From the NCBI GenBank assembly GCA_041658625.1, contig JBAZZW010000002.1, forward strand, positions 538,851 through 602,850: 64,000 nt of DNA, written 5' to 3'. Position 1 is the first letter of the stretch. Every line of letters starts with the position of its first letter. The translations under genes and the position numbers were made by a program. Under the pieces are notes generated by a model. It had not been told where the DNA came from. It did no database searches and worked only from the letters and a program-made list of their open reading frames with translations. Source of the DNA: Actinomycetota bacterium (lineage in GTDB: Bacteria > Actinomycetota > JAHEXW01). Below are positions 8,946 to 63,887 of this stretch, piece by piece.

Positions 8946-9354
8946 GTGTTCATTATCATTTGACGGAAGAACTGCGTCAAGGTTCGGCCAAACACTGTCC
9001 TATATAGCGGTCAAGTGACAGACAACTAGACAACCCATTGCTAGGCGCATTGTTCATAGAAAAGGTCAGCCAAGTAAGTTATTTAATTTCTATCTAATAA
9101 GCCATGGCAAAACCTCATCACTCTTCGGTAATCATAGAGAATGTTCGAAGACGCTCCGGCGGCCGCTGTCGCGTCACTGTAAAGTGTCAACAGAAACGGG
9201 GGAACTCCAACTCCAGTTTGTTGTTTATTGTAGCCGAGTGGGCTACGAGTCTTCTTCAAAAGAATATTCCATATACATAGCGTTTCCTCAGCTCTTGAGG
9301 TTTAGCACTTGAAAGTACATAATGAACCTAATCTTGTCTACTGGGGAGTTAATT

Positions 9355-11817: not shown

Positions 11818-11994
11818 CTATGTTGCCTAGCATTCTTACAACAGATTTCGAAACAGCAATGAAAACTATCGAGTGCATCTAATGTTCATCGAATAAGTCA
11901 CCGCAAAACTCCGCTACTCCTCGTTAATCACAGAGTACTCTCTTTAAAGACAATCCGCAGACAAGGACAGCCATCGGGTGATATAGTAATACAT

Positions 11995-12059
11995 TGTTGG
12001 TTGCGCTGGAGGGACTACGAATCCGTAGGTTGGAGGTTCGGCTCCTCTCGGGCGCGCCA
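11995..12059 (+). other. tRNA-like 3' fragment (T-arm-like GGAGG-TTCGGCT-CCTCT, acceptor-like CGGGCGC, G, CCA); no matching 5' acceptor strand
   Basis: Read directly; antisense ORF 11924..12130 translates to the RSRTSNLRIRSP-type peptide typical of tRNA-derived DNA. Possible degenerate tRNA or integration-site remnant. Confidence 0.25.
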
Positions 12060-12161
12060 CATCTCACCTGGGCAACAGATGATGATTTCTTTAATTGACA
12101 AGGTATTATCTGGGGCAATCTAATACTCATCTAATATTGATTGTCGCCGACAAGGAAGGCA

Positions 12162-13028
12162 ATGATATACAAAGGCTTGTACTCTCAGCGCAAGAAAATA
12201 AACCCTGATGAAGATGTTTTTTCATATTCGCTCCCTGCCCCAGTAAGAGCTGCAATATTTAATATTATTAAAAACACCAATCCGAATTGGTCATCTCACG
12301 GCAAAACCCGAAGGCCTTTAAAGGCCATTGTTAAGGATTTTTGTGAAAATCATTTATTTCACGGGATTACACCAAGAGCAGAAGACGCTTTTGCATCTGG
12401 GTACCAATACGCCGACCACCAACTTACCGATGACCTTAAGGCATGGATCCAAACGACTCCACAAGAATCTTTGTTTGATTTTATTGAAGTAGCAATTATT
12501 AATATGAGCGAGTCTAATTTAACGACGCTTGTTAAAGATATTAATGATTTGTTTCAAAGGGAAATGATTGGATTTGAGATTGTAAACGGAAACATTATTG
12601 ACAAGTCTGATGAATTCCTTCATCAAGAAGTTGTTCTGCAGCCAATTCTTGGGCTAAAAGCAGGAGGATTTGAAAAAGCCGAACAAGACTTCATGAAGGC
12701 ATTGCAGGAATATGCCCACAAAGATTATGCGGGAGCCCTTACAAGTGCTAATACTGCGCAGGAAAGCGTTATGAAGAGGATTCTTGGAGTCGAAAAAGGT
12801 GTGTCAAGTGATTTGGTTAAGACATTAGTTGAAAGGGGCATAATCCCTTCATATATGCAGAATAAAATGTTACTGCCCGTTTCGATAAGAAACAAAGATA
12901 GCGACGCACACGGCAGGCTTGATCCAATTGACGTCACGCCGGAACTAGCTCAATACGCGATTCATTGTGTCGGGGCTAATGTTGTGTTCTTGCTCAAAGT
13001 TACGAATATGGACGGCACCCAACAATAG
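12162..13028 (+). CDS. hypothetical protein with C-terminal HEPN-like Rx6H motif (candidate abortive-infection/RNase-type effector)
   Basis: ATG 12162 preceded by AAGGAAGG RBS (track start 12141 is TTG); C-terminal SIRNKDSDAHGRLD fits the HEPN Rx4-6H motif; AT-rich gene. Confidence 0.45.
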   Translation: MIYKGLYSQRKKINPDEDVFSYSLPAPVRAAIFNIIKNTNPNWSSHGKTRRPLKAIVKDFCENHLFHGITPRAEDAFASGYQYADHQLTDDLKAWIQTTPQESLFDFIEVAIINMSESNLTTLVKDINDLFQREMIGFEIVNGNIIDKSDEFLHQEVVLQPILGLKAGGFEKAEQDFMKALQEYAHKDYAGALTSANTAQESVMKRILGVEKGVSSDLVKTLVERGIIPSYMQNKMLLPVSIRNKDSDAHGRLDPIDVTPELAQYAIHCVGANVVFLLKVTNMDGTQQ

Positions 13029-37750: not shown

Positions 37751-38416
37751 CTATTTTCTCCCCCTCAGGGCGACCTTGAGGATGGCAAGAAACTGCCGGC
37801 CGCGATGTATGAAGCCCCGGACGTTGCGATAAGTATAGCTATGCGCGAAGGCCGCCGGCACTTCCTTTACTTTTAAGCCCGACCGTAAAACATCGACGGT
37901 CATAGCCGTCTCCAGGCCGTAACCCTGGGCGAATGGATACGCCGCCTTGAAAGCCTTTTCATTCAAAGCCCGCTGTCCGCTAAGAGGCGCTTCCGCCTCG
38001 GATCCCGTCTTGCTCTTTATGACCCGCCTGGCCAACCCGAGCGCCAGTCCGAAGCCGCCGGTGCCCTCTTTCTTAGGCAGCACGGCCACGGTCATGTCCG
38101 TCTGTCCGCTGAGAATGGGGTCAAGCAGTTTGCCGGCCTCGGACGCGGTTTTTCCGGTATCACCGTCTATCAACAAGATCACGTCGAAGGGTACGCCGCC
38201 GCTTAGCGCTTTGTTGACGGCGCCGCCTTTTCCCAGATTGCGGCTCAACCGGACGACGTCGGCCCCGGCCGTTTCGGCAGCGTTCGCGGTGTCGTCCGTT
38301 GAAGCGTCGTCGACCACGATAACATTATTTATGCCGGGGACGGCGCGCAGAGCTTGAACCGTGGCGCCGATCCGGTCCGCCTCATTGTAAGCGGGTACGA
38401 GGGCAACGGTTTTCAC
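37751..38416 (-). CDS. family 2 glycosyltransferase (dolichyl/polyprenyl-phosphate sugar transferase-like)
   Basis: 221 aa; VALVPAYNEADRIGATV...VIVVDDASTDDT GT-A motifs. Confidence 0.8.
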   Translation of the reverse strand: MKTVALVPAYNEADRIGATVQALRAVPGINNVIVVDDASTDDTANAAETAGADVVRLSRNLGKGGAVNKALSGGVPFDVILLIDGDTGKTASEAGKLLDPILSGQTDMTVAVLPKKEGTGGFGLALGLARRVIKSKTGSEAEAPLSGQRALNEKAFKAAYPFAQGYGLETAMTVDVLRSGLKVKEVPAAFAHSYTYRNVRGFIHRGRQFLAILKVALRGRK

Positions 38417-51110: not shown

Positions 51111-51914
51111 ATGTTCATAGACACACACGTGCATCTAGATTTTGCTGATTTCCAGCGCGACCGGTCGGAGACCGTAGCGCGGGCCGAGGCGGCCGGCGTA
51201 AGCAAGATGATCAACGTCGGTTCCAGCCTGCAGGGTTCCCGGGATTCCATTAAATTGTCTAAAGAATTTCCAGGCGTTTACGCGACCGTCGGCATCCATC
51301 CCCATGACGCCGGAGAGGCTACTCAGCGGAATCTGGCCGAACTGTTACTCCTGGCATCTAAGCCCAAGGTCGTCGCCATCGGAGAGATCGGTCTGGATTA
51401 CTTCAAATCCAAGACCAGCCCTCAGCTGCAAAAGGAAGCCTTTCTTCGTCAGCTGGATATGGCCATAAGGTTAAATAAGCCGGTCATCATACACTCGCGA
51501 GACGCCGAGGAAGACATGTTAGATGTCTTCTGGCAATTCCAAGGCGTGCGCGGCGTCCTGCACTTTTTCTCCGGCTCTCCGGATTTTGCCAAAGCCGCGG
51601 TTTCATACGGTTTATACGTGTCGTTTACGGGTGTTATCACTTACAAACCCCGCCAGCCCGGCCGCGGCAGCGGAGCCGAATACGACGCTCTCCGCGAGGA
51701 GATTATTAACAGCATTCCTGCCGACCGGCTGATGATTGAGACGGATTGTCCCTTCGCCGCGCCCGAACCTTACCGCGGGAAAAGATGCGAACCGGCCTAC
51801 GTCGTCGAGGTTGCCAGGAGGCTGGCCGAAGTCCGCGGTATTTCCCTGGATGAGATCGAACGTGTGACCACCGAGAACGCCGAAAGGTTTTTCGGACTCT
51901 CCGACCAGCCTTAG
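51111..51914 (+). CDS. tatD: TatD-family metal-dependent hydrolase
   Basis: Start at ATG 51111 (MFIDTHVHLDF); the track's 50724 start is an antisense-overlap extension into thrS. Confidence 0.85.
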   Translation: MFIDTHVHLDFADFQRDRSETVARAEAAGVSKMINVGSSLQGSRDSIKLSKEFPGVYATVGIHPHDAGEATQRNLAELLLLASKPKVVAIGEIGLDYFKSKTSPQLQKEAFLRQLDMAIRLNKPVIIHSRDAEEDMLDVFWQFQGVRGVLHFFSGSPDFAKAAVSYGLYVSFTGVITYKPRQPGRGSGAEYDALREEIINSIPADRLMIETDCPFAAPEPYRGKRCEPAYVVEVARRLAEVRGISLDEIERVTTENAERFFGLSDQP

Positions 51915-51915
51915 A

Positions 51916-52737
51916 CTAACGGCCGACCTCGGCGTAAACGTCTTCGTCGCTCGTTAACCTCAAAAACGCTCCCAAGAATACGAACACATAACAGCCCATC
52001 CAGAATACGTCAATTACGTTTGAAACCAGCGTGCCGGGCTGGTAAGCGTCAGCTACGGAAAAGAACGTAAAAGCCATGTCTCCGACCGCATATAACGCGA
52101 TCCCCGTAATGACAGCCGTGACCCACGACGGCCACTTGGAGACGTTTGAAAAGATTGCGGTCGATATGAACCCGACCAGCAGGGCTACGTCAAAGACCGG
52201 GTATAAGGCGTTGATCAGCTCGTCATACATCTGTTGCTGGATATAGGTCGAATAGATTGCCAGGTACTGGAAGAACCAAACCGCGGCCGCCGTCGTTATC
52301 ATTAAGGCTATTATTACGATTACACCGAACAGATGTTGGTTCTTTTTGCGCGAAATCCGCCAGAAGGCGAATTAGAGACAGAAACATAAACGCATAACCG
52401 GTTAGAAACGCGTACGTCCCGAATGAGGACGAAGCGGGCTGGCTTAAGCCCTTGAATATCTGAAGATAAACCCAGTATAATTCCGCGGCCGTCAGCGCAA
52501 TCATTGACAAAGCCAAGGACCCCCAAAAGAATCCTTCGTAGGCGCGCTTCTTAATGAACGCGGCGGTCGTTCCGATTACAGCGATAACCGGCGGAAACAC
52601 ATACGCGACGCCGAGGACTTTGTTTTTCGCATCTAAAGAGACCGGCCAAAAGGCCGCGCCCACATACATAAGAATATAAAATATGTGAAACACTAAAATT
52701 GCACTGATTCTTTTCGGGTCTATCCATTTATGCATAA
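51916..52737 (-). pseudogene. polytopic membrane protein gene interrupted by a frameshift at a homopolymer run (two ORFs 52223..52870 and 51916..52302)
   Basis: Both ORF halves are TM-helix-rich in different frames; frames cross between about 52302 and 52374, with a T5/A5 run at 52343..52347; sequence after the shift in the upstream frame is non-membrane-like. Confidence 0.4.
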
Positions 52738-52806
52738 TGTATTTATAATAGGATGTTATTATCGGCAAGCCAATAAGAATTTGGCAATCGAACGGAAGGA
52801 GAGAAA

Positions 52807-53745
52807 TTGGAAGCGACAGTCGAAGCCGGTCAGAGACCGCCTCTGGCCAAAGTGTTGTTCCTGGAGACAAGGCCGCAGTTCTTAACTCTTATCCCCTGCG
52901 TGCTAACCCCGGGCGTCGCGCTGGCTTATGCCGGCGGGCATTTTAACTGGGCGCATTTAATTCTTGCGCTGATCGGTTCGTTGTTGGTACACATATCGGT
53001 TAACGTACTGAATGACTATACCGACTGGGTGCGCGGTACTGACAAACTGGTCCAAAGGACGCCTTTCTCGGGCGGCAGCGGATTAATCAAGGCCGGCATG
53101 ATTTCCCCGCGAATGGTGCTTATTGAAGGCGTTGCTGCTTTATGTTTGTCCCTTGTAATCGGCATCTATTTTGTGTATCTGTATCCGGTCCTCTTATGGT
53201 TCGTGGTAGGCGGTGCATTGCTGACCGTGTTCTACACGCCGGTGTTGACCAAGACTGTCATCACGGAGATCTTCCCGGGCTTAGGTTTCGGCGTCATCCC
53301 CGTTATCGGCGCTTACATCGTAATGCAGCCGGTCGGCAAGGTCGCGATTACCCCGGAAGTCATCTGGCTTAGCATCCCCGCCACCATCCTCGTGTCGGGA
53401 CTCCTTTGGATAAACGAGATTCCCGACATCCAGGCGGACAAGGCCACCGGTCGGCGTCACGCGGTCCTGTTGATGGGCACACAGAAAGCCGCTTGGGGTT
53501 ACGTCGCTTTGTTGGTCATGACCTACGTCTCGATAGTAACGCCGATCGCCCTGGGCATCCTGCCTGTCTGGTGTCTGGCAGGCTTATTGACCATACCCCT
53601 GGCCGTAAAAGCCGGAACCGGCGCGGTCAAGAACCACGACAGCATCGAGGGCATAACCCCGGCGCTCGGCCAGAACATTTTAACCGTTCTCGCCACTCCG
53701 GTGCTATTGGCCATCGGCTTGGTTGTCTCCAAACTGGTCGGATAA
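52807..53745 (+). CDS. UbiA-family prenyltransferase (MenA-like)
   Basis: 312 aa; NVLNDYTDWVRGTD Asp-rich motif, about 8 TM helices. Confidence 0.8.
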   Translation: MEATVEAGQRPPLAKVLFLETRPQFLTLIPCVLTPGVALAYAGGHFNWAHLILALIGSLLVHISVNVLNDYTDWVRGTDKLVQRTPFSGGSGLIKAGMISPRMVLIEGVAALCLSLVIGIYFVYLYPVLLWFVVGGALLTVFYTPVLTKTVITEIFPGLGFGVIPVIGAYIVMQPVGKVAITPEVIWLSIPATILVSGLLWINEIPDIQADKATGRRHAVLLMGTQKAAWGYVALLVMTYVSIVTPIALGILPVWCLAGLLTIPLAVKAGTGAVKNHDSIEGITPALGQNILTVLATPVLLAIGLVVSKLVG

Positions 53746-53845
53746 GTTTCACAGTATATTCACAAACGGTTCACGGGATATTCTTGTGAGCCCTTGATAA
53801 TGGGCATTAGAGGTAGCCAAGGCTACCCCGCCCATCAGACAAAAG

Positions 53846-53886
53846 AAAAAGAGCAGGATAACAGACCACCTGCTCTTTTTCTTTTA
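53846..53886 (+). terminator. rho-independent terminator candidate after UbiA-family gene
   Basis: AAAAAGAGCAGG / CCTGCTCTTTTT inverted repeat with 12-nt loop, followed by CTTTT. Confidence 0.5.
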
Positions 53887-53955
53887 GCTGAAACTCCTAC
53901 TATGATACAATCATTACAAACATTTCGACCTTACCCGAATATCGAGAGACGGCAA

Positions 53956-56172
53956 ATGCCAAAAGTCAGTATAGTCATAACGTGTCATAACCATGGACGG
54001 TTTTTACCATTTGCGATAAAGAGCGCGATCTCGCAGACATATAAGGACTTTGAAGTTATTGCCGTGGATGATGGGTCCACCGACAATACAGCCGCTGTTT
54101 TAGTGAAATATGAAAACGACCCGCGATTCACAATAATACACCAGGAAAGAAAAGGACCTGCGTCGGCTCGTAACCTCGCCATTGAGCAGGCAAACGGCGA
54201 TTTCATCCTGCCCCTGGACGCAGACGATATTATAGAAAAGAACATGCTCGAAGAAACCGTGCCGGTTCTGGAGAAGAATCCAGATCTTGGTGTTGCATAC
54301 ACCCAATGGAAGACTTTTGGCGATGTCATCAAATTGGTTTTGCCAATCGAGTACAACTTTTTGGTCCTCGCCTATCATGCCAACTTCATTCCCGGGTGCT
54401 CGCTTTATCGTAAACAAGCCTGGAAAGAAGCTGGCGGATACAACACTGATATGGAATATGGAGGTGAGGCCTGGGATCTATTTGTCAGAATGGGCGAAAA
54501 AGGTTGGTGTGGTGGGTTAGTGTCTAAGACACTATTAATGACTAGAATCCATTCAGAATCAATGCAGGGTTTATCTGACAAGCATAAACAAGACATAATC
54601 AACCAGGTTGTCGCGAATAACAAAGACGTATACTCAAAGAATGTCGAAGCGAAAGACTGGTTTGAGGCAAAGCAACTAGCCCGTGAAAACAGATATCCAT
54701 TTTCTGATGTACCAATACCCGAGCTTAACGATGTATTAATAAAAAACTTGGCTTGGCCGAAACCTGCGAGTGCTCCAAAGGTCAGCATTATTATCCCCTG
54801 TTATAACCAGGCCGACCTGCTTGATGAGGCAGTTAATAGCGCTCTATGCCAAACCTATCAGTCGTTTGAGATCGTGATCGTCAATGACGGCTCAACGGAT
54901 AACATTGGTGAAGCGCTAAAGAAACATGCAAATAATCCAAAAATACATATCATCAACCAGGAGAATCAAGGAGTGGCAAGTGCAAGAAACAATGCAATTC
55001 TGACAGCTGGGGGCGAGTATATTTTGCCTCTTGATGCCGACGATATGATTGAACCTACATACCTCGAAAAGACAGTTGCCTCCCTCGACGCAGAAGAAAA
55101 AGCTGGAATTGCGTATACATACATTAAGTTCTTTGGCAACGCAGAAAGAGAAATACAACAAATTGACTTTGATTTCATGGTTCTGGCCTATCATGGTAAT
55201 TTTATGACATGCACATCTTTGTTTAGAAAGACAGCCTGGGAAGATGCGGGTGGCTATAACCCAAACATGAGGTATGGATATGAAGATTGGGATCTATGGC
55301 TTGGAATTTCCGAACGGGGTTGGGGTGTTACATTTGTGAAGGAACCACTGATCCACTATCGCCAGACTGAAACATCCAGGTCTGATGAAGCACACAGACA
55401 TCTCCCTGAGCTATACCGCCAGCTGATTGCGAATCACCCTATCACGTACGCTCAACCTCTTGCCGAGAAGAAATGGCTACGCTTTGTGAAACAGGTTAGT
55501 GATGAGACGCGTTTTCCTATCGGAAATGCGACATCTCCATGTTTTCAGACCTATATAGATAACATCATTTTTGAACCAGTCGACAAGCCGGATGTAAGCG
55601 TCATCATCACTTGCGATCACCGTGCCAATACAATTATGGAGAGTGTCAGGAGCATCCTTTTCCAGGATTACCGCAGCTTCGAGATAATAATCGTTGATCT
55701 AGGAATAGCTGGAGACGCTAAGGGTGAGCTTGAAAAGCTAAAAGCAAATCCACGTGTTGCGATCATTGATGCGACTTTTTCGAGAGACTTGATATCATCT
55801 ACCAGCAAAGCAGTTTCAGGAGCGCGAGGTAAGTATATATTGATGCTGAGTAATGGTGATGTAGTACACAAAACATTGCTTAGTAAAGCAACGCGAGAGT
55901 TCAATAAAAGAACCAAACTAGGCATTGTCTATGCGAATGAACAAGAACGCAATGGAGAAGAGGCTGCAAGAAAAATCCAGTATAGCTACGCTGCCCTAAA
56001 GCGCCAAAATTATATTGGGCGACACGCAGTTTTTAGCAAGCATGCCTGGCTGGAAGCGGGCGGCTTTAAGAAGGAGACTCTGAATCCTGACATTCTATGG
56101 GGCCTATGGCTAAGAATGGGCGACCTTGGCTGGGCGGGGAAATTGATTGATGAACCCCTGGTGCTTCAATAA
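53956..56172 (+). CDS. multi-domain family 2 glycosyltransferase (three tandem GT-A domains)
   Basis: Start at ATG 53956 (MPKVSIVITCHNHGRFL), downstream of the terminator; GT2 signatures at SIVITCHN...VIAVDDGSTD, SIIIPCYN...IVIVNDGSTD and SVIITCDH...IIIVDLG. Confidence 0.8.
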   Translation: MPKVSIVITCHNHGRFLPFAIKSAISQTYKDFEVIAVDDGSTDNTAAVLVKYENDPRFTIIHQERKGPASARNLAIEQANGDFILPLDADDIIEKNMLEETVPVLEKNPDLGVAYTQWKTFGDVIKLVLPIEYNFLVLAYHANFIPGCSLYRKQAWKEAGGYNTDMEYGGEAWDLFVRMGEKGWCGGLVSKTLLMTRIHSESMQGLSDKHKQDIINQVVANNKDVYSKNVEAKDWFEAKQLARENRYPFSDVPIPELNDVLIKNLAWPKPASAPKVSIIIPCYNQADLLDEAVNSALCQTYQSFEIVIVNDGSTDNIGEALKKHANNPKIHIINQENQGVASARNNAILTAGGEYILPLDADDMIEPTYLEKTVASLDAEEKAGIAYTYIKFFGNAEREIQQIDFDFMVLAYHGNFMTCTSLFRKTAWEDAGGYNPNMRYGYEDWDLWLGISERGWGVTFVKEPLIHYRQTETSRSDEAHRHLPELYRQLIANHPITYAQPLAEKKWLRFVKQVSDETRFPIGNATSPCFQTYIDNIIFEPVDKPDVSVIITCDHRANTIMESVRSILFQDYRSFEIIIVDLGIAGDAKGELEKLKANPRVAIIDATFSRDLISSTSKAVSGARGKYILMLSNGDVVHKTLLSKATREFNKRTKLGIVYANEQERNGEEAARKIQYSYAALKRQNYIGRHAVFSKHAWLEAGGFKKETLNPDILWGLWLRMGDLGWAGKLIDEPLVLQ

Positions 56173-56175
56173 CTA

Positions 56176-56838
56176 TTACTTTCGTACTTTTCGTGCAACA
56201 ATGCAGGCTACAGCTTGGACATAGCCATTTGAAACAGAATCAATATCGAGCAAGTCTGTTTTTGTTGCCGGAATCCAGTGGAGCCTTTCTAGGCCTTTAA
56301 AATACTTTTCTTTTTCTATTGTGAATCCATCAAGCAACGATACCAGCGCTTCATCGTCATATACTCTATACCAACTTGATTGCATCCTTCTCCCAAACGG
56401 GATAGTCAGAATGAACATACCATCGTTTGTTAAAACTCGGCTTATCTCTTGAACTACCTTAAAGTCACCATTGCTAAGAGGCTCTTCTCCATAGGCGCCA
56501 AGTCCGCAGTGCTCAATTGCTGAAACTGCACTTACAACGTCGAAAGAACCGCTTTGAAAGGAGTCTTTCAGAAAATCGCCTTTTACGAATTCGAAGTTTG
56601 GATGCTTAAGATCGTAATCTGTTAAGTCAACTCCTACTACTCTATGCCCCAGACTTGCTAGTTCAATAGGAAGTCGGCTTCTAGCGCAACCAAAGTCAAG
56701 AATCCGCAATTCCTGATTGCTCGGAATATTTTGAAAAACGAATGGAATCTCGACAATTCTTTCATTTGTAAGAAGTTGATCTGAAGGACCATCGTAATAT
56801 ATTGACTCTTCAAAAAGGGATTTTAGGTCTTTATCCAT
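56176..56838 (-). CDS. class I SAM-dependent methyltransferase
   Basis: 220 aa; motif I ILDFGCARSRLPIELASLGHRVVGVD. Confidence 0.75.
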   Translation of the reverse strand: MDKDLKSLFEESIYYDGPSDQLLTNERIVEIPFVFQNIPSNQELRILDFGCARSRLPIELASLGHRVVGVDLTDYDLKHPNFEFVKGDFLKDSFQSGSFDVVSAVSAIEHCGLGAYGEEPLSNGDFKVVQEISRVLTNDGMFILTIPFGRRMQSSWYRVYDDEALVSLLDGFTIEKEKYFKGLERLHWIPATKTDLLDIDSVSNGYVQAVACIVARKVRK

Positions 56839-56958
56839 GCTCCAAACTTAATATAGCAAACAGTGGCTGTCAACATAGCTTGTAAGAAATGTTACTTTTA
56901 TGGATAATTGAAAGTAATTTCATGTCAGCGCGTTGATCTCTTTATTTGGGTATGTTCA

Positions 56959-59355
56959 ATGACGAGAAAAGGAAAAAAGAGGCTAAATCTTGGGTGTGGG
57001 CCGGATATCAGAGAGGGCTTTATAAATGTTGACGCACGGTCACTTCCCGGCGTCGATCTAGTTTCTGATGTAAGGAAGCTGCCTTTCCCTAAATCAAGTA
57101 TTTCGGAAATTGTCGCTATCGATGTACTTGAACATTTGTCTAGACTTGAAGCGCCTGAGGCGCTTAGATATTGGGTTTCACTTCTAACCAAAGAAGGATC
57201 GATCTTTGTTCAATCACCAGATATCCGATTGCTAGCAGAGGTTATTGAAGATGACGATGAGCTTTCGCGAAGACTATACGGGGATCAGGATTATCCCGAG
57301 AATCTCCATAAAAGTGGGTTCACTTTATCGCGTCTTAGGGAATTATTAGAAGCTGAAGGCTTGAAGATCGTAAAAGGAACTTATATTAATGGGAATTTTA
57401 GAATTTGGGCTACCTATCCACGCTCAAGAATAAAAAAATGTCTTTGTCTCGGCAAAACCGATCCATACCCATCAGGTCAGATTCCAGATGAAACGCTAAT
57501 AGTTGAAGGACTAAAAGATAATGGGATCGATGTTGATTTCTATGATTATAAAGATTTCGACCCAGAATTAACTGATATCTACGATTTTGCACTACTAATT
57601 TATCATTACGACATTCCTCTTCAAGGGTATCGTTATCTTCTGGATCAAGTCGTTGCTGACAAGACCGCACTAATGACATTTGACTGGGTTCTATCTGAGG
57701 CGAGAAGAACTGGGTTTCTAGAGGTGGCGAGACTCTTCGACATTGTTTTTACAACAGACGATGTTGTTGACTGGCGTTCCTTGGGAGTGAACCAGGCAAC
57801 AATTCGACAAGGAGTTAGTTCACCTCATAAGCGCGGTCACAAGAGAAACGATCTCGATTTTGATATAGCGTTCATCGGCGGCCTAAATGACTCAAGCAGG
57901 GTTGAAAACCTTAGAACGATTATGAAGAAATATAAGGTCGCTCATTTTGATAATCAGGTAAATCAAGAATTTAGTTCCATCTATATGGGGCCTGCTCACA
58001 ATGAAAGGTTCTGTGATATATGCAGTTCAGCAAAAATCATTCTGGGCGGCGGTTTCCCTGAAACTACGAAGGGTTACTGGTCAAATCGTGTTTACATGGT
58101 CCTTGGATGTGGGGGATTCTTCCTTTCGCCATATGTTGAAGGTATGGAGAGCGAATTTGAAGATAAAAAGCACCTGGTTTTTTTTCGCTCAGAATCTGAA
58201 CTAGAAAAGAATGTTCAGTACTATCTAAAGAATGATGCCGAAAGGGAAAACATAGCTAGAAACGGAAGAGCGCTTGTGCATCAAGAGTATTCATACAAAA
58301 AGCGAACTAGAAGTTTGGTTAAAGAGATAAACGAAATGCGGCGCAAAATCGGTCTTGTGTCATACACTGAACGACAAAGCGGATTAGGCATTATGGCAAA
58401 TGAGCTAGTTGACAGCTTGAATATAACAAACATCCTATCGATAGACTCTGCCAAGGGGAAACGAGAAACTTGGAGAGAAAACCAAGTTAATGCCAACAAT
58501 CCACCGGATCAAGAATCCATATTTGAGTTTTTGTCACAGAATTTTAAGGTCCTACTCTTGCTGGAGACGCCGTTTAATCAACATATTCCGTATGTGGCAA
58601 AAAAAGCAGGCAAAAAGGTAGTCTGCTATGTTCACCATGAGTGGTTGCCACTAGATGCACCGTGGCTGCAATACGTTGATCTATTCTTGTGTCCAAATAG
58701 TATTGCCGAAGAGAAAATGAATAGTTATGTAAGAAAACAAGTCAATTGGCCAATCAATCTTTCCCAATATGAGTTTAAAAAAAGAGAGGGTCATGTCTTT
58801 ATACATAATGCTGGATATATTGGACCCTTTAATAGAAAAGGAACAGCTGATGTAATACAAGCTTTCTGTGCATCAAAGGCAGGAAAGCTGATTCTAAGAA
58901 GCCAAATCCCTCTAGAACAAGAGATTGATTTGGATCTTGTAAAAATGGCAAGAGATGATAGTCGTATAGATATCAGAATTGGCGCGCTTGATAACTATCA
59001 GGACTTGTTTAGCGAAGGTGACATTGCGTTACAGCCTAGCCGTTTTGAAGGATATGGGAGAGCAATAGCTGAGGCTATGGCTTCAGGCTTGGTAGTTGTA
59101 ACAACAGATGCTCCACCCATGAAGGACTTTGTCGGAGATTCTAAGCTTCTAGTCAAAGTGTCTTCAGAACAACCATTAAGATCCGGCCCATTTGACGCTA
59201 TATCATATGTACCAGACATAGATTCGATGACAGAGATAATTGATTCTTTGTCAAGATCAAGTGATATTGGAAAGTTTAGTCTCGAGGCCAGAGAGAGAAT
59301 TGAGTCAGGATATAGCCGGTGGGACAAAATAATTGAAATACTACAAAATGTCTAG
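56959..59355 (+). CDS. fusion protein: N-terminal SAM-dependent methyltransferase + central and C-terminal glycosyltransferase (GT1/GT4-like) domains
   Basis: Start at ATG 56959 (MTRKGKKRLNLGCGPD); MTase motif LNLGCGPD...AIDVLEHL; C-terminal EGYGRAIAEAMASGLVVVTTD typical of GT4. Confidence 0.7.
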   Translation: MTRKGKKRLNLGCGPDIREGFINVDARSLPGVDLVSDVRKLPFPKSSISEIVAIDVLEHLSRLEAPEALRYWVSLLTKEGSIFVQSPDIRLLAEVIEDDDELSRRLYGDQDYPENLHKSGFTLSRLRELLEAEGLKIVKGTYINGNFRIWATYPRSRIKKCLCLGKTDPYPSGQIPDETLIVEGLKDNGIDVDFYDYKDFDPELTDIYDFALLIYHYDIPLQGYRYLLDQVVADKTALMTFDWVLSEARRTGFLEVARLFDIVFTTDDVVDWRSLGVNQATIRQGVSSPHKRGHKRNDLDFDIAFIGGLNDSSRVENLRTIMKKYKVAHFDNQVNQEFSSIYMGPAHNERFCDICSSAKIILGGGFPETTKGYWSNRVYMVLGCGGFFLSPYVEGMESEFEDKKHLVFFRSESELEKNVQYYLKNDAERENIARNGRALVHQEYSYKKRTRSLVKEINEMRRKIGLVSYTERQSGLGIMANELVDSLNITNILSIDSAKGKRETWRENQVNANNPPDQESIFEFLSQNFKVLLLLETPFNQHIPYVAKKAGKKVVCYVHHEWLPLDAPWLQYVDLFLCPNSIAEEKMNSYVRKQVNWPINLSQYEFKKREGHVFIHNAGYIGPFNRKGTADVIQAFCASKAGKLILRSQIPLEQEIDLDLVKMARDDSRIDIRIGALDNYQDLFSEGDIALQPSRFEGYGRAIAEAMASGLVVVTTDAPPMKDFVGDSKLLVKVSSEQPLRSGPFDAISYVPDIDSMTEIIDSLSRSSDIGKFSLEARERIESGYSRWDKIIEILQNV

Positions 59356-59453: not shown

Positions 59454-59675
59454 ATGAAGAGCACATTTACTGCTGTTTTCGAGAAAACGGACGATTGGTA
59501 TATCGGCTATGTCGAAGAACTTCCTGGTGCCAACTCACAGGGAAAAACTCTTAACGAGGCGCGCGAAAACCTAAAGGAAGCTATAGAGCTTACCCTCAAA
59601 TCTAACCGCGAGATTGCCGAACGCGGCCTAACGGGCAAAAAGGTAATCAGGGAATCCATTCAGATAGCCGTCTAA
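59454..59675 (+). CDS. hicB: HicB-family antitoxin
   Basis: 73 aa; FEKTDDWYIGYVEELPGANSQGKTLNEARENLKEAIEL resembles HicB/UPF0150; -10 box only 7 nt upstream of ATG (leaderless-like). Confidence 0.65.
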   Translation: MKSTFTAVFEKTDDWYIGYVEELPGANSQGKTLNEARENLKEAIELTLKSNREIAERGLTGKKVIRESIQIAV

Positions 59676-59864
59676 ATGAAAAGGCGCGCTCTGCTAGCCC
59701 ATCTTAAGAAGCACAACTGCGTCCTGTTAAGACAAGGCGCACGTCATTCTGTGTTCATCAACACCGCGAACAATAAAGTCTCGACCGTCCCCCGACATTC
59801 TGAGATTGTCGATCTTCTTGCTAAGAAGATTTGTCGCGACCTCGAAATCCCCGCCCCTCTATAA
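59676..59864 (+). CDS. hicA: HicA-family toxin (mRNA interferase)
   Basis: 62 aa; LKKHNCVLLRQGARHSVFIN...HSEIVDLLAKKICRDL fits HicA/YcfA-like fold; start abuts hicB stop. Confidence 0.7.
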   Translation: MKRRALLAHLKKHNCVLLRQGARHSVFINTANNKVSTVPRHSEIVDLLAKKICRDLEIPAPL

Positions 59865-59988
59865 AAACATACCCTCTCCACTCAAGAACCCCCCCCTTTT
59901 TTTTGAGCTCGCAAAATATTCTTCGAGCGAGCGCTAATTACGAGCTTGCCCTGAGCTAGTCGAAGGGTCGAGAAGGGAGGGCGCCGCT

Positions 59989-60159
59989 CGCTGGACAAAC
60001 CCGGCTATGCTCTTTAATATTGTTTAAGTGCGAATACGGGTGATTAGCTCAGGGGGGAGAGCGCTTCCCCTGACACGAAACTCGTGTACCATGCCCAAGC
60101 CCCATCTCATCTGCAGGTATAACACTCTTTTGGAATCCGCCGTCGCTATGTAAGTGCAC
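59989..60159 (+). repeat. ~170-bp direct repeat, copy 1 (contains tRNA D-arm-like TAGCTCAGGGGGGAGAGCGC)
   Basis: Aligned by eye with copy 2 at 62542..62710; high identity over most of its length with a few indels. Confidence 0.6.
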
Positions 60160-60333
60160 AAAAAGCGAGCAATTGGAAGTTTGTCAATTGGAAGATTCCG
60201 AATCAGGCTTCTTTTTCGTTGCCGCTTCTTCTTCCTCGCGTTCCCATTTGGGCTTGATTCAATTCGGGACCTTGAACATCGTGAAGATTGCTAGGAAGAC
60301 GACAACTTGCCAATCTTAGTCTTGGATATTGCC

Positions 60334-60657
60334 TTAGACTACACGCTTGTAATATTTGAAACTCCCTCCAGTTGAAAGTATTGACCCCATCCAAGTACGT
60401 CGGTCGATTCCTGCTAATTCTTCATCACTTCTTGATGCCAAGTCGTCATACATCGCATAACCGAACAAAAATAGATACGATAACCCAAAACCGGCTGTAA
60501 ACGCAAACAAAGTAAAGAAAAGTGTTTCTATTGCGTCAGTTTTGTTCATCGCCATGAGAATTAAGACCACAGCAGCAATAATTGATGCTACGATGAGCGA
60601 GATTGTTCTCACGCGCTTTTGGAGTTTGCTGATTTTCATATTCGTATCATATTTCAT
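60334..60657 (-). CDS. small two-TM membrane protein, immunity-like (downstream of RHS remnant)
   Basis: 107 aa; start overlaps the RHS-fragment stop by 4 nt; two hydrophobic helices. Confidence 0.45.
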   Translation of the reverse strand: MKYDTNMKISKLQKRVRTISLIVASIIAAVVLILMAMNKTDAIETLFFTLFAFTAGFGLSYLFLFGYAMYDDLASRSDEELAGIDRRTWMGSILSTGGSFKYYKRVV

Positions 60658-61023
60658 ATTGCCCTAGTCTTCCCTTTATAATCCACACCTCGGCCGTTAC
60701 CGTGAATTGCAGAGGAGTTATTCCCGCAATAGAGATAAGGATTGAGCGCCAACCTGTCCGTCGCCTGCTGCGGCATAGCGTCCCGGGAGATGAACCTGCC
60801 GGTCGCAGGATTGTAATACCTGGCGTTTAAGTAATACATCCCGGTCTTGTTACCTGGGGTCAGGCCCTGTCGCTTAAGAGGAGAGGGCCTGACCCCAAAG
60901 CCGACCCAATGGATTCCCGAAGGTGCCTGTCGCAACGATATTCTTGGCTGTCAAGTTGCTTCCGTCCCAGACCCAGGCATATTCCGTCGGGTTCCCCCGG
61001 GCGTCATAAGCCCAGCTCCGTCA
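60654..61023 (-). pseudogene. RHS/YD-repeat protein C-terminal remnant (frameshifted), ending in a short C-terminal tip
   Basis: ORF 60654..60935 encodes MYYLNARYYNPATGRFISRD...NPYLYCGNN (RHS core end); upstream a different frame encodes YDARGNPTEYAWVWDGSNLTAKNIVATG; no intact N-terminal RHS body. Confidence 0.55.
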
Positions 61024-61202
61024 TGGCGTCATCCTGGGCTCCGTGTCTTCTAGGAGCGCAGGAACTCAGACGCTGCTATTCATTCAAGTATAATCGTGCC
61101 CTGAGAGTCAAGACCTTGCCGCCAAGACATCCCCATGATTATTCAAAACACAATAATGAGTGATCCAGTACTTGACTTTTCACATGCAATATTGCATTAT
61201 GA

Positions 61203-62453
61203 ATGCAATGCTGTAAAAAGGAGACGCGCGTGCCTAAGCATTATATAGAACGAACAATTGAGCCTTTACTGTTGCGATCGTCGCAAGAGTCACCCGCCAT
61301 CGTTCTGACCGGCCCCAGACAGTCAGGCAAAACGACGCTCCTTAAGCATGTCTTCTCCAAAACTCATCGATATATTTCCCTTGATCTGCCGGACGTCGCA
61401 GCGTCGGCGACCGCCGACCCGCGAGGTTTCCTCGATATAAATCGTCCGCCGGTAATCTTCGACGAGATCCAGTATGTACCCGGACTCCTTCCTTATATAA
61501 AAGAGCTTGTCGACGCAGACAGGCAGAGTATGGGCCGGTTCATTCTTACGGGTTCACAGAACTTGATGTTGCTCAACAGCGTGACCGAGACTCTAGCCGG
61601 GCGAGCCGCACTCTTGCGTCTCCTGCCTCTCTCATATAACGAGGCGCTCGGTCGTCCGTTGACTTCTCTGCCGTGGGAGTCGAAAAAGAGCCATGAGATC
61701 TTGCCTGAGCTTACGCATTCCAACCTCTACCAGAAGCTCATCATCGGGTCTTTTCCGGAACTCGTTGCCACTCCTAAATCCGATCCGACAATCTGGCAAG
61801 GCAGCTATATCCAAACATATCTTGAACGCGACGTGAGAAGCTTAAGACATATCGGCGATTTGTCGACCTTCCAGAACTTCTTGCGGGTCATCGCAGCGCG
61901 CTCGGGTCAGCTGTTCCAGCTTGCTGATGTATCTCGCGACCTGGGTGTCGCTTTCAACACGGCTAAGCAATGGCTCTCCATTCTGGAAGCCACCTACCAG
62001 GTCGTGGTCGTACGACCGTATTTCGAGAACGTAGGTAAACGGCTTGTCAAAACGCCGAAGGTTTACTACCTCGATACAGGGCTCTTGGCATATCTAGCGC
62101 AGATACGCGACGCGGATCAAGCATCTACAGGCCCTTTCAGCGGTGCGTTCTTTGAGACTGCGGTCTTGGCCGAGCTTACCAAGAGCTATGTTCACAGAGG
62201 GAAAGAGGCCCGGATCTTCTTCTGGCGCACAGCGGCCGGCAAAGAAGTCGATTTCGTGATAGAGGTCGGCGGGACATTGATTCCGATTGAGGTCAAAGCA
62301 TCAGCAACCCCGCGCCCAGAGATGACGACTGGCTTGCGTTCATTTATGGAAGACTACAGCCCTAGGGCAAACAAAGGTTATGTCGTACACCCGGGCAATA
62401 TCCGACTACCGCTCGCGCCGGACATCGAAGCCTTACCGTTCGCCCTTCTGTGA
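61203..62453 (+). CDS. AAA+ ATPase with C-terminal DUF4143-like domain
   Basis: 416 aa; Walker A LTGPRQSGKTTLL, Walker B VIFDEIQ, C-terminal region typical of this ATPase family. Confidence 0.7.
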   Translation: MQCCKKETRVPKHYIERTIEPLLLRSSQESPAIVLTGPRQSGKTTLLKHVFSKTHRYISLDLPDVAASATADPRGFLDINRPPVIFDEIQYVPGLLPYIKELVDADRQSMGRFILTGSQNLMLLNSVTETLAGRAALLRLLPLSYNEALGRPLTSLPWESKKSHEILPELTHSNLYQKLIIGSFPELVATPKSDPTIWQGSYIQTYLERDVRSLRHIGDLSTFQNFLRVIAARSGQLFQLADVSRDLGVAFNTAKQWLSILEATYQVVVVRPYFENVGKRLVKTPKVYYLDTGLLAYLAQIRDADQASTGPFSGAFFETAVLAELTKSYVHRGKEARIFFWRTAAGKEVDFVIEVGGTLIPIEVKASATPRPEMTTGLRSFMEDYSPRANKGYVVHPGNIRLPLAPDIEALPFALL

Positions 62454-62541
62454 CGACTCTTTGGCTTATCTTAAAAGTTCACTTCGATTTGGGGAATATC
62501 TTATAGATTTCTGACACCGCTATGTTCGCGAAGGATTTGCC

Positions 62542-62710
62542 CGCTGGACAAACAAGCCTATGCTCTTTAATATTGTTTAAGTGCGATTACGGGTGATTAG
62601 CTCAGGGGGAGAGCGCTTCCCTGACACGGAATTCGTACACTGACTTCATTCCCCTTCCCATCTGCAGGTATAACACTCTCTGGGAATATATAGCGCGTCC
62701 GTAAGTGCAC
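62542..62710 (+). repeat. ~170-bp direct repeat, copy 2
   Basis: Aligned by eye with 59989..60159; followed at 62738..62793 by a tail element that also occurs at about 5925..5980. Confidence 0.6.
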
Positions 62711-62909: not shown

Positions 62910-63887
62910 TTACTGTGACTTCTTGATAAATTCTCGAATTGGCTCAAACTGTTGATAGTCAAAAGCCGCAATATGATAAGGCAATGCGCTCAAGGAGCTA
63001 CATGAATCGTCTAAATGGTTCTCCACATAAGAATTTATTAACATATCTAAAGTGTCATCCATGTTGACGACATCCATGTAGTACGGATCAAGTTCCTTAC
63101 CCGTTTCATAGATATTCAAAAACCGCCCCTTCGAGTCAACGTGATTAGCGTAGAAAGCACCTATACCTATTTTGGCAGCTGAAATCTTCTCGTAACGGTC
63201 CTTGAATCCTCCGAACACCCGTGGCTCCAGATGCCGAAACTTCCATATTCGAAATTCCCCGGTTTTCATTGTTAAATCTCTCAATTCTGCAACTATTTTG
63301 AGGAATCCTTCGCGAGTCCTTTCTGAAAAAGCCTTAATAATAGTTCCCGATTCTTCTCTTTTGACAATATCATCCGGAGCAATAACGTTCGTCCTTGAAA
63401 AGACAGATTGTGTAATATCATCTATCAATAGACAACACGTTTTCAGGTATTCCGGATTGTCAGTCGAGTGTCGAAAAACATCTGAGATTCCTGGGATCAA
63501 ATCATATATATATCCAAGCTCCTCACTTTTCTCAACACAAGCATCGATCAATTCAAGCATATTTGTGTCGCTTAGGTTTGAATGAATGACTAGCTTCATA
63601 GCGTCCCAATGACCTTCGTAGTCTGAAAAAAGACAGAGTCCACGTAAGAACCAAGACTCCTTGATGTTTGGATTTTCATCAATGATTTCTTCCAAGATCG
63701 CATTGGCCTTTTTGAAGTCTCCGAACGACATATAGGTTCTGGCTATATCAATATTCCTGCCACCCTTTTTTGTGGCCGAGTCAAACTCAAGTGCTGAATC
63801 ACAATAGGGGCATCTTGTTATACTGGCATTCGATGCTGGATCGAGTTGACCACCACAGCTGGGGCAGGAAAGCTTTCGTACCTCCAT
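62910..63887 (-). CDS. hypothetical protein with N-terminal zinc-ribbon (CPSCGG...CPYC) and helical (TPR-like) region
   Basis: 325 aa; AT-rich gene; no family recognised. Confidence 0.5.
   Translation of the reverse strand: MEVRKLSCPSCGGQLDPASNASITRCPYCDSALEFDSATKKGGRNIDIARTYMSFGDFKKANAILEEIIDENPNIKESWFLRGLCLFSDYEGHWDAMKLVIHSNLSDTNMLELIDACVEKSEELGYIYDLIPGISDVFRHSTDNPEYLKTCCLLIDDITQSVFSRTNVIAPDDIVKREESGTIIKAFSERTREGFLKIVAELRDLTMKTGEFRIWKFRHLEPRVFGGFKDRYEKISAAKIGIGAFYANHVDSKGRFLNIYETGKELDPYYMDVVNMDDTLDMLINSYVENHLDDSCSSLSALPYHIAAFDYQQFEPIREFIKKSQ

Follow-up and report, generated by a model that had tools for sequence, protein, structure and literature searches.

A three-gene, AT-rich cassette from an uncultivated Actinomycetota bacterium, found within the 64-kb stretch of DNA analysed here (the window), is most likely an ordinary, species-variable cassette whose product is a methylated cell-surface sugar chain. 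It occupies a fixed chromosomal position (53956-59355), directly 3′ of a conserved DXS...ThrRS-TatD-UbiA block, and encodes three soluble proteins that together carry seven enzyme-type modules: two GT2 domains with intact motifs, one degenerate GT2 domain, two complete GT-B (GT4-like) modules and two class-I SAM methyltransferases (Table 1). Only four of the transferase modules look active, the third GT2 domain being excluded. The fuller reading that we favour, tentatively and with a little less than even confidence, is that this species-variable glycan-assembly cassette at a fixed site serves the assembly or decoration of a methylated surface glycan at the cytoplasmic face.

Table 1. Features of the cassette and its left border (positions in the window).
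Feature	Positions	Strand	Evidence
Terminator-like hairpin, between UbiA stop and GT2 start	53835..53891		23-nt arms, 91% complementary; A-tract 5′, T-tract 3′
GT2 gene, 738-aa soluble protein, three tandem GT2 (GT-A) domains	53956..56172	+	Pfam PF00535, three stretches
GT2 domain 1 core, aa 1-200	53956..54555	+	PF00535 122.7 bits; VDDGSTD, LDADD, GEAWDL intact; 76% identity to P0002
GT2 domain 2 core, aa 273-472	54772..55371	+	PF00535 122.0 bits; VNDGSTD, LDADD, YEDWDL intact; 72% identity to P0002
GT2 domain 3, aa 546-738, degenerate and C-terminally truncated	55591..56172	+	PF00535 42.7 bits; VDLGIAGD, LSNGD, DILWGL
Stand-alone class-I SAM-dependent methyltransferase, 220 aa	56176..56838	-	Methyltransf_11 44.4 bits (cutoff 21.2)
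Divergent intergenic region, AT-rich, 120 nt	56839..56958		Between methyltransferase and fusion genes
Fusion gene, 798-aa soluble protein: methyltransferase + GT-B (PF13524) + GT-B (GT4-like)	56959..59355	+	Pfam
Fusion module 1, small class-I SAM methyltransferase	56959..57408	+	Methyltransf_11 22.8 bits (cutoff 21.2)
Fusion module 2, complete GT-B fold, Glyco_trans_1_2	57433..58344	+	PF13524 81.6 bits; confident AlphaFold model
Fusion module 3, complete GT-B fold, GT4-like	58345..59355	+	PF13692/PF00534 45.5/37.8 bits; AlphaFold2 pLDDT 96.6

Domain content of the three proteins

The initial annotation had described the first gene product as a 739-aa, three-domain GT2 enzyme with tandem GT-A domains. 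Indeed, PF00535 matches in three stretches, each above the cutoff (23.3 bits) when the domains are scanned one by one, in a protein of 738 aa. The start codon at 53956 is backed by the N-termini of two orthologue-like homologues, P0002 (GCA_040960625.1, 1174 aa, 57% full-length identity) and P0003 (777 aa, 48%); an alternative NCBI model of 790 aa would read through the terminator-like hairpin. The tandem domains account for a triplet repeat in the DNA (spacing 816 and 810 nt), and domain 2 is 42% identical to domain 1. Although domain 3 matches the family profile, it is devoid of the DXD and catalytic-base motifs; the canonical (D/N)DGSTD, LDADD and EDWD are kept by its sister domains and by the third domains of P0002, P0003 and P0004. 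It shares 32-33% identity with the third domains of P0002 and P0003, and stops about 60 residues early, 4 nt before the convergent methyltransferase gene. Sequencing error was rejected as the cause of this degeneracy, since an independent assembly, L003 (99.9% nucleotide identity), carries the same sequence. Because the motifs kept by these other domains are lost, the three-domain description holds for fold and homology and probably not for catalysis: domain 3 is predicted to be non-catalytic. In the PDB search, K4CP (2z86), a chondroitin polymerase with two domains, is the best solved relative of the protein and is matched in two stretches (E 2e-29); further PDB matches include the wall-teichoic-acid glycosyltransferases TarS and TarP, and GalT1.

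The stand-alone methyltransferase was correctly recognised from the start, and the NCBI annotation is likewise "class I SAM-dependent methyltransferase". The PDB search returned generic SAM methyltransferases for it and, weakly, a D-glucose O-methyltransferase (6uv6). Its gene is convergent with the GT2 gene and divergent from the fusion gene, and the region between the latter two presumably holds the promoters of both; one sigma-70-like match lies there at 56880-56908(+), sigma-70-like matches not being enriched compared to shuffles.

The proposed methyltransferase-glycosyltransferase fusion also stands, at 798 aa rather than 799, a length equal to that of NCBI MFA5867867.1 and counted from the ATG at 56959. 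Its N-terminal module carries an intact motif I (LNLGCG) followed by NVD and DVLEH, has stand-alone homologues of about 150 aa (45-56% identity), and its family profile matches PDB SAM methyltransferases (E 1.5e-8). Modelling confirmed both transferase modules as complete GT-B folds. Module 3 has an intact E-x7-E motif (FEGYGRAIAE) and an RKG motif, and its Foldseek matches are BshA, PBCV B736L, GlgM and PimA; GtfC/Gtf3 also appears among the GT-B structural matches. The MMP mannosyltransferase 7qsg is found for both GT-B modules; it is one among many GT4 structures that match equally well, at 12-16% identity. Apart from the fusion itself, the search of 1.84 billion representative proteins found no full-length homologue, and every pair of its modules occurs together elsewhere.

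Base composition and variability of the site

The locus is clearly AT-richer than the core, as first proposed: its GC content averages 0.421 (range 0.40-0.45), about 8 standard deviations below the core (mean 0.556, sd 0.017, in 1-kb windows over 20-51 kb). Neither a uniform GC nor a single glycosyltransferase domain, the two observations named at the outset as contrary to the proposal, was found. Within the cassette there is a step in composition, from a GC3 of 0.445 in the GT2 gene to 0.33 in the methyltransferase and 0.35 in the fusion gene, the flanking housekeeping genes lying at 0.61-0.71. The low-GC cassette begins on its left side at the hairpin, which presumably acts as a terminator; a simple terminator scan misses it because its 11-nt loop exceeds the limit of the scan. 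No integrase, tRNA or IS was found at the cassette borders; the neighbourhood does contain an Rhs fragment, a toxin-antitoxin pair and a strain-level 2.55-kb indel.

The initial annotation took the low GC to suggest horizontal acquisition, but a simple recent import does not fit the comparison with related species. At the same UbiA-adjacent site, the related species L001 (flank 83% nucleotide identity) also has a low-GC cassette. Both loci share the UbiA-GT2 junction and ~1370 nt from the start of the GT2 gene (77% nucleotide identity), and the downstream genes of L001 form a different low-GC cassette, non-orthologous to the genes described here. L005, which is more distantly related, shows the DXS..ThrRS-TatD-UbiA synteny too and lacks the cassette. 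A shared 5′ part with swapped downstream genes is what one expects of a variable glycan locus of long standing in which cassettes are exchanged. In general terms the proposal of a methylating, glycan-modifying locus is retained, and "horizontally acquired" is too simple.

The genomic contexts of the relatives are diverse. The cluster around P0003 is large and glycan-related, and contains epimerases, DegT and NeuB. A polysaccharide locus of the Wzz/Wzy/Wzx kind harbours a remote methyltransferase+PF13524 homologue along with a stand-alone methyltransferase, a GT1 and a GT2-methyltransferase. Both contexts support a surface-glycan reading. A remote methyltransferase+PF13524+TPR relative directly follows FliW-CsrA, other multi-domain GT2/GT4/methyltransferase relatives adjoin nonulosonic-acid genes (NeuB/CTP_transf_3/DegT) without an exporter, and some remote relatives are located in phage-like contigs; these last three contexts point away from a surface-glycan reading.

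Possible assembly pathway and alternative readings

A cell-surface polysaccharide or glycoprotein, as originally suggested, is a plausible product. The surface-glycan reading is supported by the matches of the GT2 protein to a polysaccharide polymerase, K4CP, and to TarS and TarP. None of the three proteins has a transmembrane segment, and the enzymes would work on the cytoplasmic side, with priming and export of the acceptor left to genes in other parts of the genome; the likeliest acceptor is a wall or surface glycan linked to polyprenyl diphosphate. As no sugar-precursor genes are found in the cassette, common nucleotide sugars are presumed to be the donors. The two intact GT2 modules would form inverting (beta-type) linkages and the two GT4-like modules retaining (alpha-type) ones, the methyltransferases acting in sugar O-methylation. 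The fused N-terminal methyltransferase probably methylates the residue installed by its two transferase modules; WsaE and Klebsiella O7 ORF6 share this layout. The degenerate GT2 domain could be a remnant that has been decaying since a cassette was replaced, or could serve for binding or as a scaffold without catalysis, and the low GC and swapped downstream genes would result from recombination that diversifies the locus, as it does O-antigen, capsule and S-layer-glycan loci.

The 64-kb window contains no phosphoglycosyl priming transferase, Wzx flippase, Wzy polymerase, Wzm/Wzt ABC exporter or oligosaccharyltransferase, and none was found in the alternative L001 cassette either, which weighs against the reading that we favour. 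This shared lack of a primer and an exporter speaks for direct protein O-glycosylation, in which a methylated glycan is built on a cytoplasmic protein (flagellin, an adhesin, an S-layer or other surface protein) before export, so that no lipid carrier, flippase or exporter is needed. The relative that follows FliW-CsrA and those beside the nonulosonic-acid genes speak in the same direction, nonulosonic-acid genes without an exporter being a layout typical of flagellin glycosylation islands, as do the matches to GalT1, which acts in serine-rich-repeat adhesin glycosylation, and to GtfC/Gtf3 of the same adhesin pathways. However, the relatives found in these contexts are distant homologues (28-39% identity over 18-27% of the query), the window has no flagellar, S-layer or serine-rich-adhesin gene next to the locus, and Pfam finds no TPR or other protein-recognition domain in the three proteins. 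We consider this route unlikely.

The same soluble proteins without nearby export genes could instead make an intracellular polymethylated polysaccharide (MMP/MGLP-like), or attach sugars to a lipid or metabolite. In mycobacteria, GT4 enzymes and methyltransferases together make MMP and MGLP; the host is an actinomycetote, the four transferase modules of the cassette are accompanied by two methyltransferases, and both GT-B modules match 7qsg structurally. Against this, 7qsg does not stand out among the GT4 matches, the PDB searches gave no specific sequence match to MMP/MGLP methyltransferases, and an MMP-type hydrolase is absent. GT2 polymerase-like domains are not known from MMP or MGLP clusters. 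Strong cassette variability between close species also suits surface antigens better than housekeeping storage glycans, and we find an intracellular product improbable.

A partly decayed, non-functional recombination leftover at a hypervariable site, making no defined glycan, would account for the lost motifs and abrupt end of domain 3, the GC3 step, the nearby Rhs, toxin-antitoxin and indel features and the seemingly incomplete pathway, but appears equally improbable given that all three ORFs (738, 220 and 798 aa) are long and intact in AT-rich DNA where stops arise easily, are identical in two independent assemblies, and retain GT2 domains 1 and 2, E-x7-E and SAM motif I.

Comparison with known systems

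For the methylated surface glycan that we favour, the closest parallels to the fusion are found in module layout. WsaE of the Geobacillus stearothermophilus NRS 2004/3a S-layer glycan is a soluble protein with an N-terminal methyltransferase followed by two glycosyltransferase domains, the module order of the fusion, and forms repeat-unit linkages and a chain-terminating 2-O-methyl cap (PMC2943079). Its gene lies in the slg cluster with wzm/wzt, rml genes, the primer WsaP and the oligosaccharyltransferase WsaB, none of which is present in our window. ORF6 of Klebsiella pneumoniae O7, the polymerase-terminator of an O-antigen cluster of the ABC-transporter-dependent pathway, likewise has a methyltransferase at the N-terminus and two transferase modules at the C-terminus of one polypeptide, coupling polymerisation to termination (PMC11231755). 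In ORF6 a kinase, a CBM-like domain and a coiled-coil ruler separate methyltransferase and transferases, whereas in the fusion the methyltransferase abuts the first GT-B module and three globular modules fill residues 1-798, leaving no space for such a ruler, a point against the reading that we favour. The ORF6 transferases are GT2 enzymes in a cluster with wzm/wzt; those of the fusion are both GT-B/GT4-like, without an ABC transporter nearby.

The MMP system of mycobacteria (ManT, MeT1, MeT3 and a hydrolase) belongs to the same phylum and also combines a GT4 transferase with SAM methyltransferases, without an exporter. ManT (7qsg) is a fold match; the PDB searches showed no specific sequence relationship, and the cassette differs by its GT2 domains and the missing hydrolase.

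Like the 738-aa protein, K4CP/KfoC is soluble with tandem GT2 domains, two instead of three, each with a DXD motif. There is no sign of a glycosaminoglycan product here, and all NCBIfam equivalog scores of the 738-aa protein are far below their cutoffs. The nearest relatives, P0002 and P0003, are uncharacterised triple-GT2 proteins with the same domain order, and unlike the 738-aa protein they have a third GT2 domain with canonical motifs and a full C-terminus. Their downstream genes are non-orthologous to the cassette genes described here, and P0002, with one additional GT1 domain, is encoded next to UbiA at the site that corresponds to that of the 738-aa protein.

Domain organization of the three proteins

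The locus encodes three proteins, none with a transmembrane segment, which NCBI names 'glycosyltransferase family A protein', 'class I SAM-dependent methyltransferase' and 'glycosyltransferase' (here the GT2 protein, the methyltransferase and the fusion, respectively). The initial annotation had described the first as a three-domain GT2 enzyme. Three separate stretches, D1, D2 and D3, indeed match PF00535 when scanned singly, with 122.7, 122.0 and 42.7 bits (curated cutoff 23.3). D1 and D2, which are 42% identical to each other, hold the full GT2 set of nucleotide-binding, DXD metal-binding and acidic catalytic base motifs (VDDGSTD, LDADD and GEAWDL in D1; VNDGSTD, LDADD and YEDWDL in D2), and these motifs are also kept in the three closest multi-domain relatives (P0002, P0003 and P0004). 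D3 reads VDLGIAGD, LSNGD and DILWGL at the corresponding places, without the catalytic motifs, and its C-terminus is about 60 residues short, ending ahead of the YR(K/Q)xxxS segment. In the same three relatives, the third domain keeps canonical motifs. Compared with P0002, a triple-GT2 protein encoded next to UbiA in GCA_040960625.1, D1 and D2 show 72-76% identity and D3 only 32%. The degeneracy of D3 is real, since the same sequence is found in an independent assembly (99.9% nucleotide identity). By its motifs, D3 is thus a degenerate GT2 domain. As its motif loss and truncation stand against conservation in the relatives, the protein most likely has two active sites; the count of three domains holds, that of three catalytic units probably does not.

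The domain repeat also shows at the DNA level: a 26-nt segment occurs three times in the GT2 gene, at spacings of 816 and 810 nt. The start used here (Table) agrees with the N-termini of the nearest homologues; the NCBI model is longer (790 aa) and would cross a terminator-like hairpin. Among solved structures, the protein is closest to K4CP (E 2e-29), a chondroitin polymerase with tandem GT2 domains; the teichoic-acid glycosyltransferases TarS and TarP are also among the matches. All three are enzymes that work at the cytoplasmic face, on polymers. Proteins with several GT2 domains are abundant: the homologue search returned 4269 matches at E <= 0.001, including, from several phyla, triple-GT2 proteins and GT2/GT1/methyltransferase/TPR fusions. 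A separate small GT2 of 221 aa (37751-38416, minus strand), of core GC, belongs to a conserved RecN-SteA-MctB-GT2 housekeeping block and is unrelated to the cassette.

The stand-alone methyltransferase foreseen in the initial annotation was recovered as a Methyltransf_11 match of 44.4 bits (cutoff 21.2) with a variant motif I, ILDFGCARS. Its gene is convergent with the GT2 gene, their stops lying 4 nt apart, and divergent from the fusion gene.

Positions of the genes and other features of the locus and its surroundings
Feature	Position	Strand	Remarks
Terminator-like hairpin	53835-53891		from sequence
GT2 protein gene	53956-56172	+	738 aa; PF00535 in three separate stretches
Class-I SAM methyltransferase gene	56176-56838	-	220 aa; Methyltransf_11
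Fusion gene	56959-59355	+	798 aa; ATG at 56959
128-aa ORF	51916-52302	-	between TatD and UbiA; no family match
Small TM 'immunity-like' ORF	60334-60657	-	inside 2.55-kb segment
Rhs-core C-terminal fragment	60654-60935	-	inside 2.55-kb segment
DUF4143/AAA_14 ATPase	61203-62453	+	inside 2.55-kb segment
N6_Mtase/Eco57I-type restriction-modification fusion	within 6201-13028	-	914 aa
AAA_16/STAND NTPase	within 6201-13028	+	831 aa
AbiJ_NTD4 protein	within 6201-13028	+	295 aa

The existence of a methyltransferase-glycosyltransferase fusion was likewise borne out by HMMER and Pfam. Word-indexed searches gave only 7-8 weak partial matches to this protein, and its homologues were collected by searching 1.84 billion representative proteins exhaustively with HMMER, which resolves it into three modules, each with stand-alone relatives of its own; conserved residues were taken from the alignments of each module. 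Module 1 (about aa 1-150; homologues of about 150 aa, 45-56% identity) matches Methyltransf_11 at 22.8 bits (cutoff 21.2) and carries the motif I LNLGCG, whose G12 and G14 do not vary among 22 homologues; its family profile matches SAM methyltransferases of the PDB (E 1.5e-8). It is recognizable from these features as a small class-I SAM methyltransferase. Module 2 (aa 160-461) has homologues of about 310 aa (identity up to 42%) and module 3 (aa 464-798) homologues of about 340 aa (up to 43%), and both are predicted by modelling to adopt the two-Rossmann GT-B fold. The sequence of the fusion found no match in the PDB, and the fold relatives came from fold searches. Module 3 carries the E-x7-E motif of GT4-type enzymes (Pfam PF00534/PF13692) in its C-terminal Rossmann domain (FEGYGRAIAE, fusion aa ~697-705), the second E being invariant in 45 homologues. 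Module 2 has no E-x7-E and matches PF13524 instead (81.6 bits), hence it is only putatively GT4. The models contain no long helix that could act as a coiled-coil ruler, and three globular modules make up the whole chain.

No full-length counterpart of the fusion was found among the searched representatives. Partial fusions exist, with the methyltransferase joined to module 2 in P0144, P0149, P0150 and P0152, and module 2 joined to module 3 in P0147 and P0151. Judged by its parts, the fusion is a new shuffle of known modules. Together, the three soluble proteins comprise four apparently intact transferases (two GT2 and two GT-B) and two methyltransferases. Remote relatives, both methyltransferase/GT4/GT2 multi-domain and PF13524 proteins, were also seen in phage-like contigs (L017 8498-11686; L015 10001-15124), one adjoining a tail tape-measure gene and the other among DnaB, RusA, HNH and CHAP genes, which suggests that phages carry glycan-modifying modules of the same families.

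Composition and origin of the cassette

The locus is clearly richer in AT than the core, as first noted: its GC is 0.421, against 0.556 (sd 0.017, 1-kb windows) for the 20-51 kb core of the window. GC3 is 0.445 in the GT2 gene, 0.33 in the methyltransferase gene and 0.35 in the fusion gene, against 0.61-0.71 in the flanking housekeeping genes. The content of the site is also polymorphic among relatives. A related-species genome (L001, GCA_040960625.1), 83% identical in nucleotides over 8.8 kb of housekeeping flank, has a low-GC cassette (GC 0.40-0.44) behind genes in the same DXS...ThrRS-TatD-UbiA order. Our sequence aligns with it at 77% identity across the UbiA-GT2 junction and over the initial ~1370 nt of the GT2 gene; the similarity then ends, and the downstream genes in L001 encode two methyltransferases with an epimerase between them, then a hexapeptide acyltransferase and a GT1. 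Beyond the GT2 gene we found no orthology between our cassette and those of L001 and L002. In a more distant Actinomycetes MAG (L005), the housekeeping synteny, UbiA included, is kept and the cassette is absent.

These two features, deviating composition and polymorphism, agree with the horizontal acquisition first proposed. However, the cassette borders show no tRNA, integrase or IS, no direct repeats flank 53.8-59.4 kb, and the left junction is conserved in the sister species. The sole integrase-family gene of the window is XerC/D-like and lies ~21 kb away. Scans of the window for tRNAs and Rfam families found nothing, and matches to promoter and terminator consensus did not exceed the shuffled expectation. 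The locus has long been a variable site and is no simple recent import. The truncation of D3 and the drop in GC3 from the GT2 gene to the methyltransferase and fusion genes suggest that a cassette was replaced, the breakpoint lying within the GT2 gene or immediately behind it; among the breakpoints of recombination at this site, one is expected near 55.3 kb, within that gene.

We considered UbiA (52807-53745) as a functional partner and rejected it, because the conserved DXS..ThrRS-TatD-UbiA block to which it belongs persists in L005 without the cassette. This protein is MenA-like, yet under every NCBIfam cutoff, and the homologue scan returned one bacterial relative (55% identity) and otherwise archaeal UbiA proteins. 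Between TatD and UbiA, ~840 bp (~51900-52740) have no counterpart in L001.

On the other side, a toxin-antitoxin pair (59454-59864), HicB-like (UPF0150, 73 aa) and HicA-like (62 aa), immediately follows the glycan genes; neither has an NCBIfam match. An imperfect ~150-bp direct repeat (59986-60136 and 62539-62687; two blocks, 93% and 77% identical) bounds a 2.55-kb segment (60137-62687), a strain-level indel since it is absent whole from L003, a 99.9%-identical contig of another assembly. Further right (62910-63887, minus strand, and at least 17 kb past the window end; L018 1-10000, L003 16402-22217), GC is still low (0.40-0.52) and at least 12 same-strand paralogues encode proteins of 135-548 aa, each with a zinc ribbon (MFCPKCGAQNEEDAKFCxKCG) at the N-terminus and one hydrophobic helix behind it (Pfam Zn_Ribbon_1/DZR/DUF7577). 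The variable low-GC region therefore spans at least 25 kb, with the glycan cassette at its left edge. A second low-GC island (6201-13028, GC 0.41-0.47) carries defence-type genes.

Possible function of the cassette

The pathway is locally incomplete. Among the ORFs annotated across the 64-kb window there is no priming transferase, flippase, polymerase, ABC exporter, oligosaccharyltransferase or sugar-nucleotide gene, nor is there one in the 10 kb to its right, and walking rightward for export genes or targets met only the array of zinc-ribbon membrane proteins. The reading we tentatively prefer is that the enzymes could elongate or decorate a lipid-linked surface or wall glycan at the cytoplasmic face and O-methylate it, priming and export being encoded elsewhere. 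It draws on the K4CP, TarS and TarP relatives, on the precedents of WsaE and Klebsiella O7 ORF6, and on a remote methyltransferase-PF13524 relative that sits in a classical Wzz/Wzy/Wzx polysaccharide locus, along with a stand-alone methyltransferase, a GT1 and a GT2-methyltransferase. With respect to anomeric configuration, GT2 modules are inverting and GT4-type modules retaining, and up to four different linkages could thus come from the two GT2 and two GT-B modules. The donors would be common nucleotide sugars, as precursor genes are absent, and the methyltransferase modules would act on the lipid-linked glycan.

The absence of primer and exporter from both this cassette and that of L001 would also fit direct O-glycosylation of a protein, as would one remote relative placed after FliW-CsrA and others beside nonulosonic-acid genes without exporters. 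However, no target gene adjoins the locus and the homologies behind this argument from context are remote, and we consider it unlikely, if worth keeping in mind. An intracellular polymethylated polysaccharide or small-molecule glycoside is compatible with the host phylum, the solubility of the enzymes and the combination of GT4 and methyltransferase modules, but it is improbable: when we considered a mycobacterial MMP/MGLP-like assignment, the similarity to the MMP mannosyltransferase was a generic GT4 fold likeness, with neither a specific match for the methyltransferases nor a hydrolase. Equally improbable is a decaying remnant, for although D3 is degenerate and the neighbourhood unstable, the AT-rich DNA keeps three long intact ORFs, which do not differ between two assemblies.

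We can speculate further, at a clearly lower level of confidence, that the fusion may be an enzyme of undescribed type, a polymerase-capping protein complete in itself and without a ruler. Its partner would be a tandem-GT2 polymerase in which D3 has taken on a new, non-catalytic role in acceptor binding or docking, and the product a methylated heteroglycan without a dedicated exporter, in a deep uncultivated Actinomycetota lineage.

Significance and comparison with known systems

The locus adds a case of glycan diversity through the swapping of low-GC cassettes at a fixed site, in poorly known uncultivated Actinomycetota, with enzymes that pack several catalytic modules per chain. It leaves current understanding unchallenged, and generic annotation of its products as glycosyltransferases and a methyltransferase already exists at NCBI. 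Only the pseudo-GT domain and the methyltransferase-transferase-transferase architecture without a ruler are mildly unusual; D3 and the unique fusion may be of interest for work on pseudo-glycosyltransferase domains or on methyl capping without a ruler.

The characterised enzymes closest to the fusion belong to polymerase-terminator systems that depend on an ABC transporter. In the S-layer glycan pathway of Geobacillus, WsaE makes two linkages and adds the 2-O-methyl cap that ends the chain (PMC2943079), and Klebsiella O7 ORF6 joins a methyltransferase with two transferase modules (PMC11231755). Systems of this kind (WsaE, WbdD-WbdA, O7 ORF6) halt elongation by capping the non-reducing end with methyl or methyl-phosphate. 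They have wzm/wzt and a priming transferase in the locus, whereas the annotated ORFs of the 64-kb window and the next 10 kb to the right have none of these; in particular, the WsaE and ORF6 loci have wzm/wzt and that of the fusion does not. ORF6 has in addition a coiled-coil ruler, a kinase and a CBM, all three of which appear to be missing from the modelled fusion. The coupling of methyltransferase and transferase on one chain is common to these systems and the fusion, and WsaE and ORF6 share its layout, a likeness of module order: an N-terminal methyltransferase, then two transferase modules.
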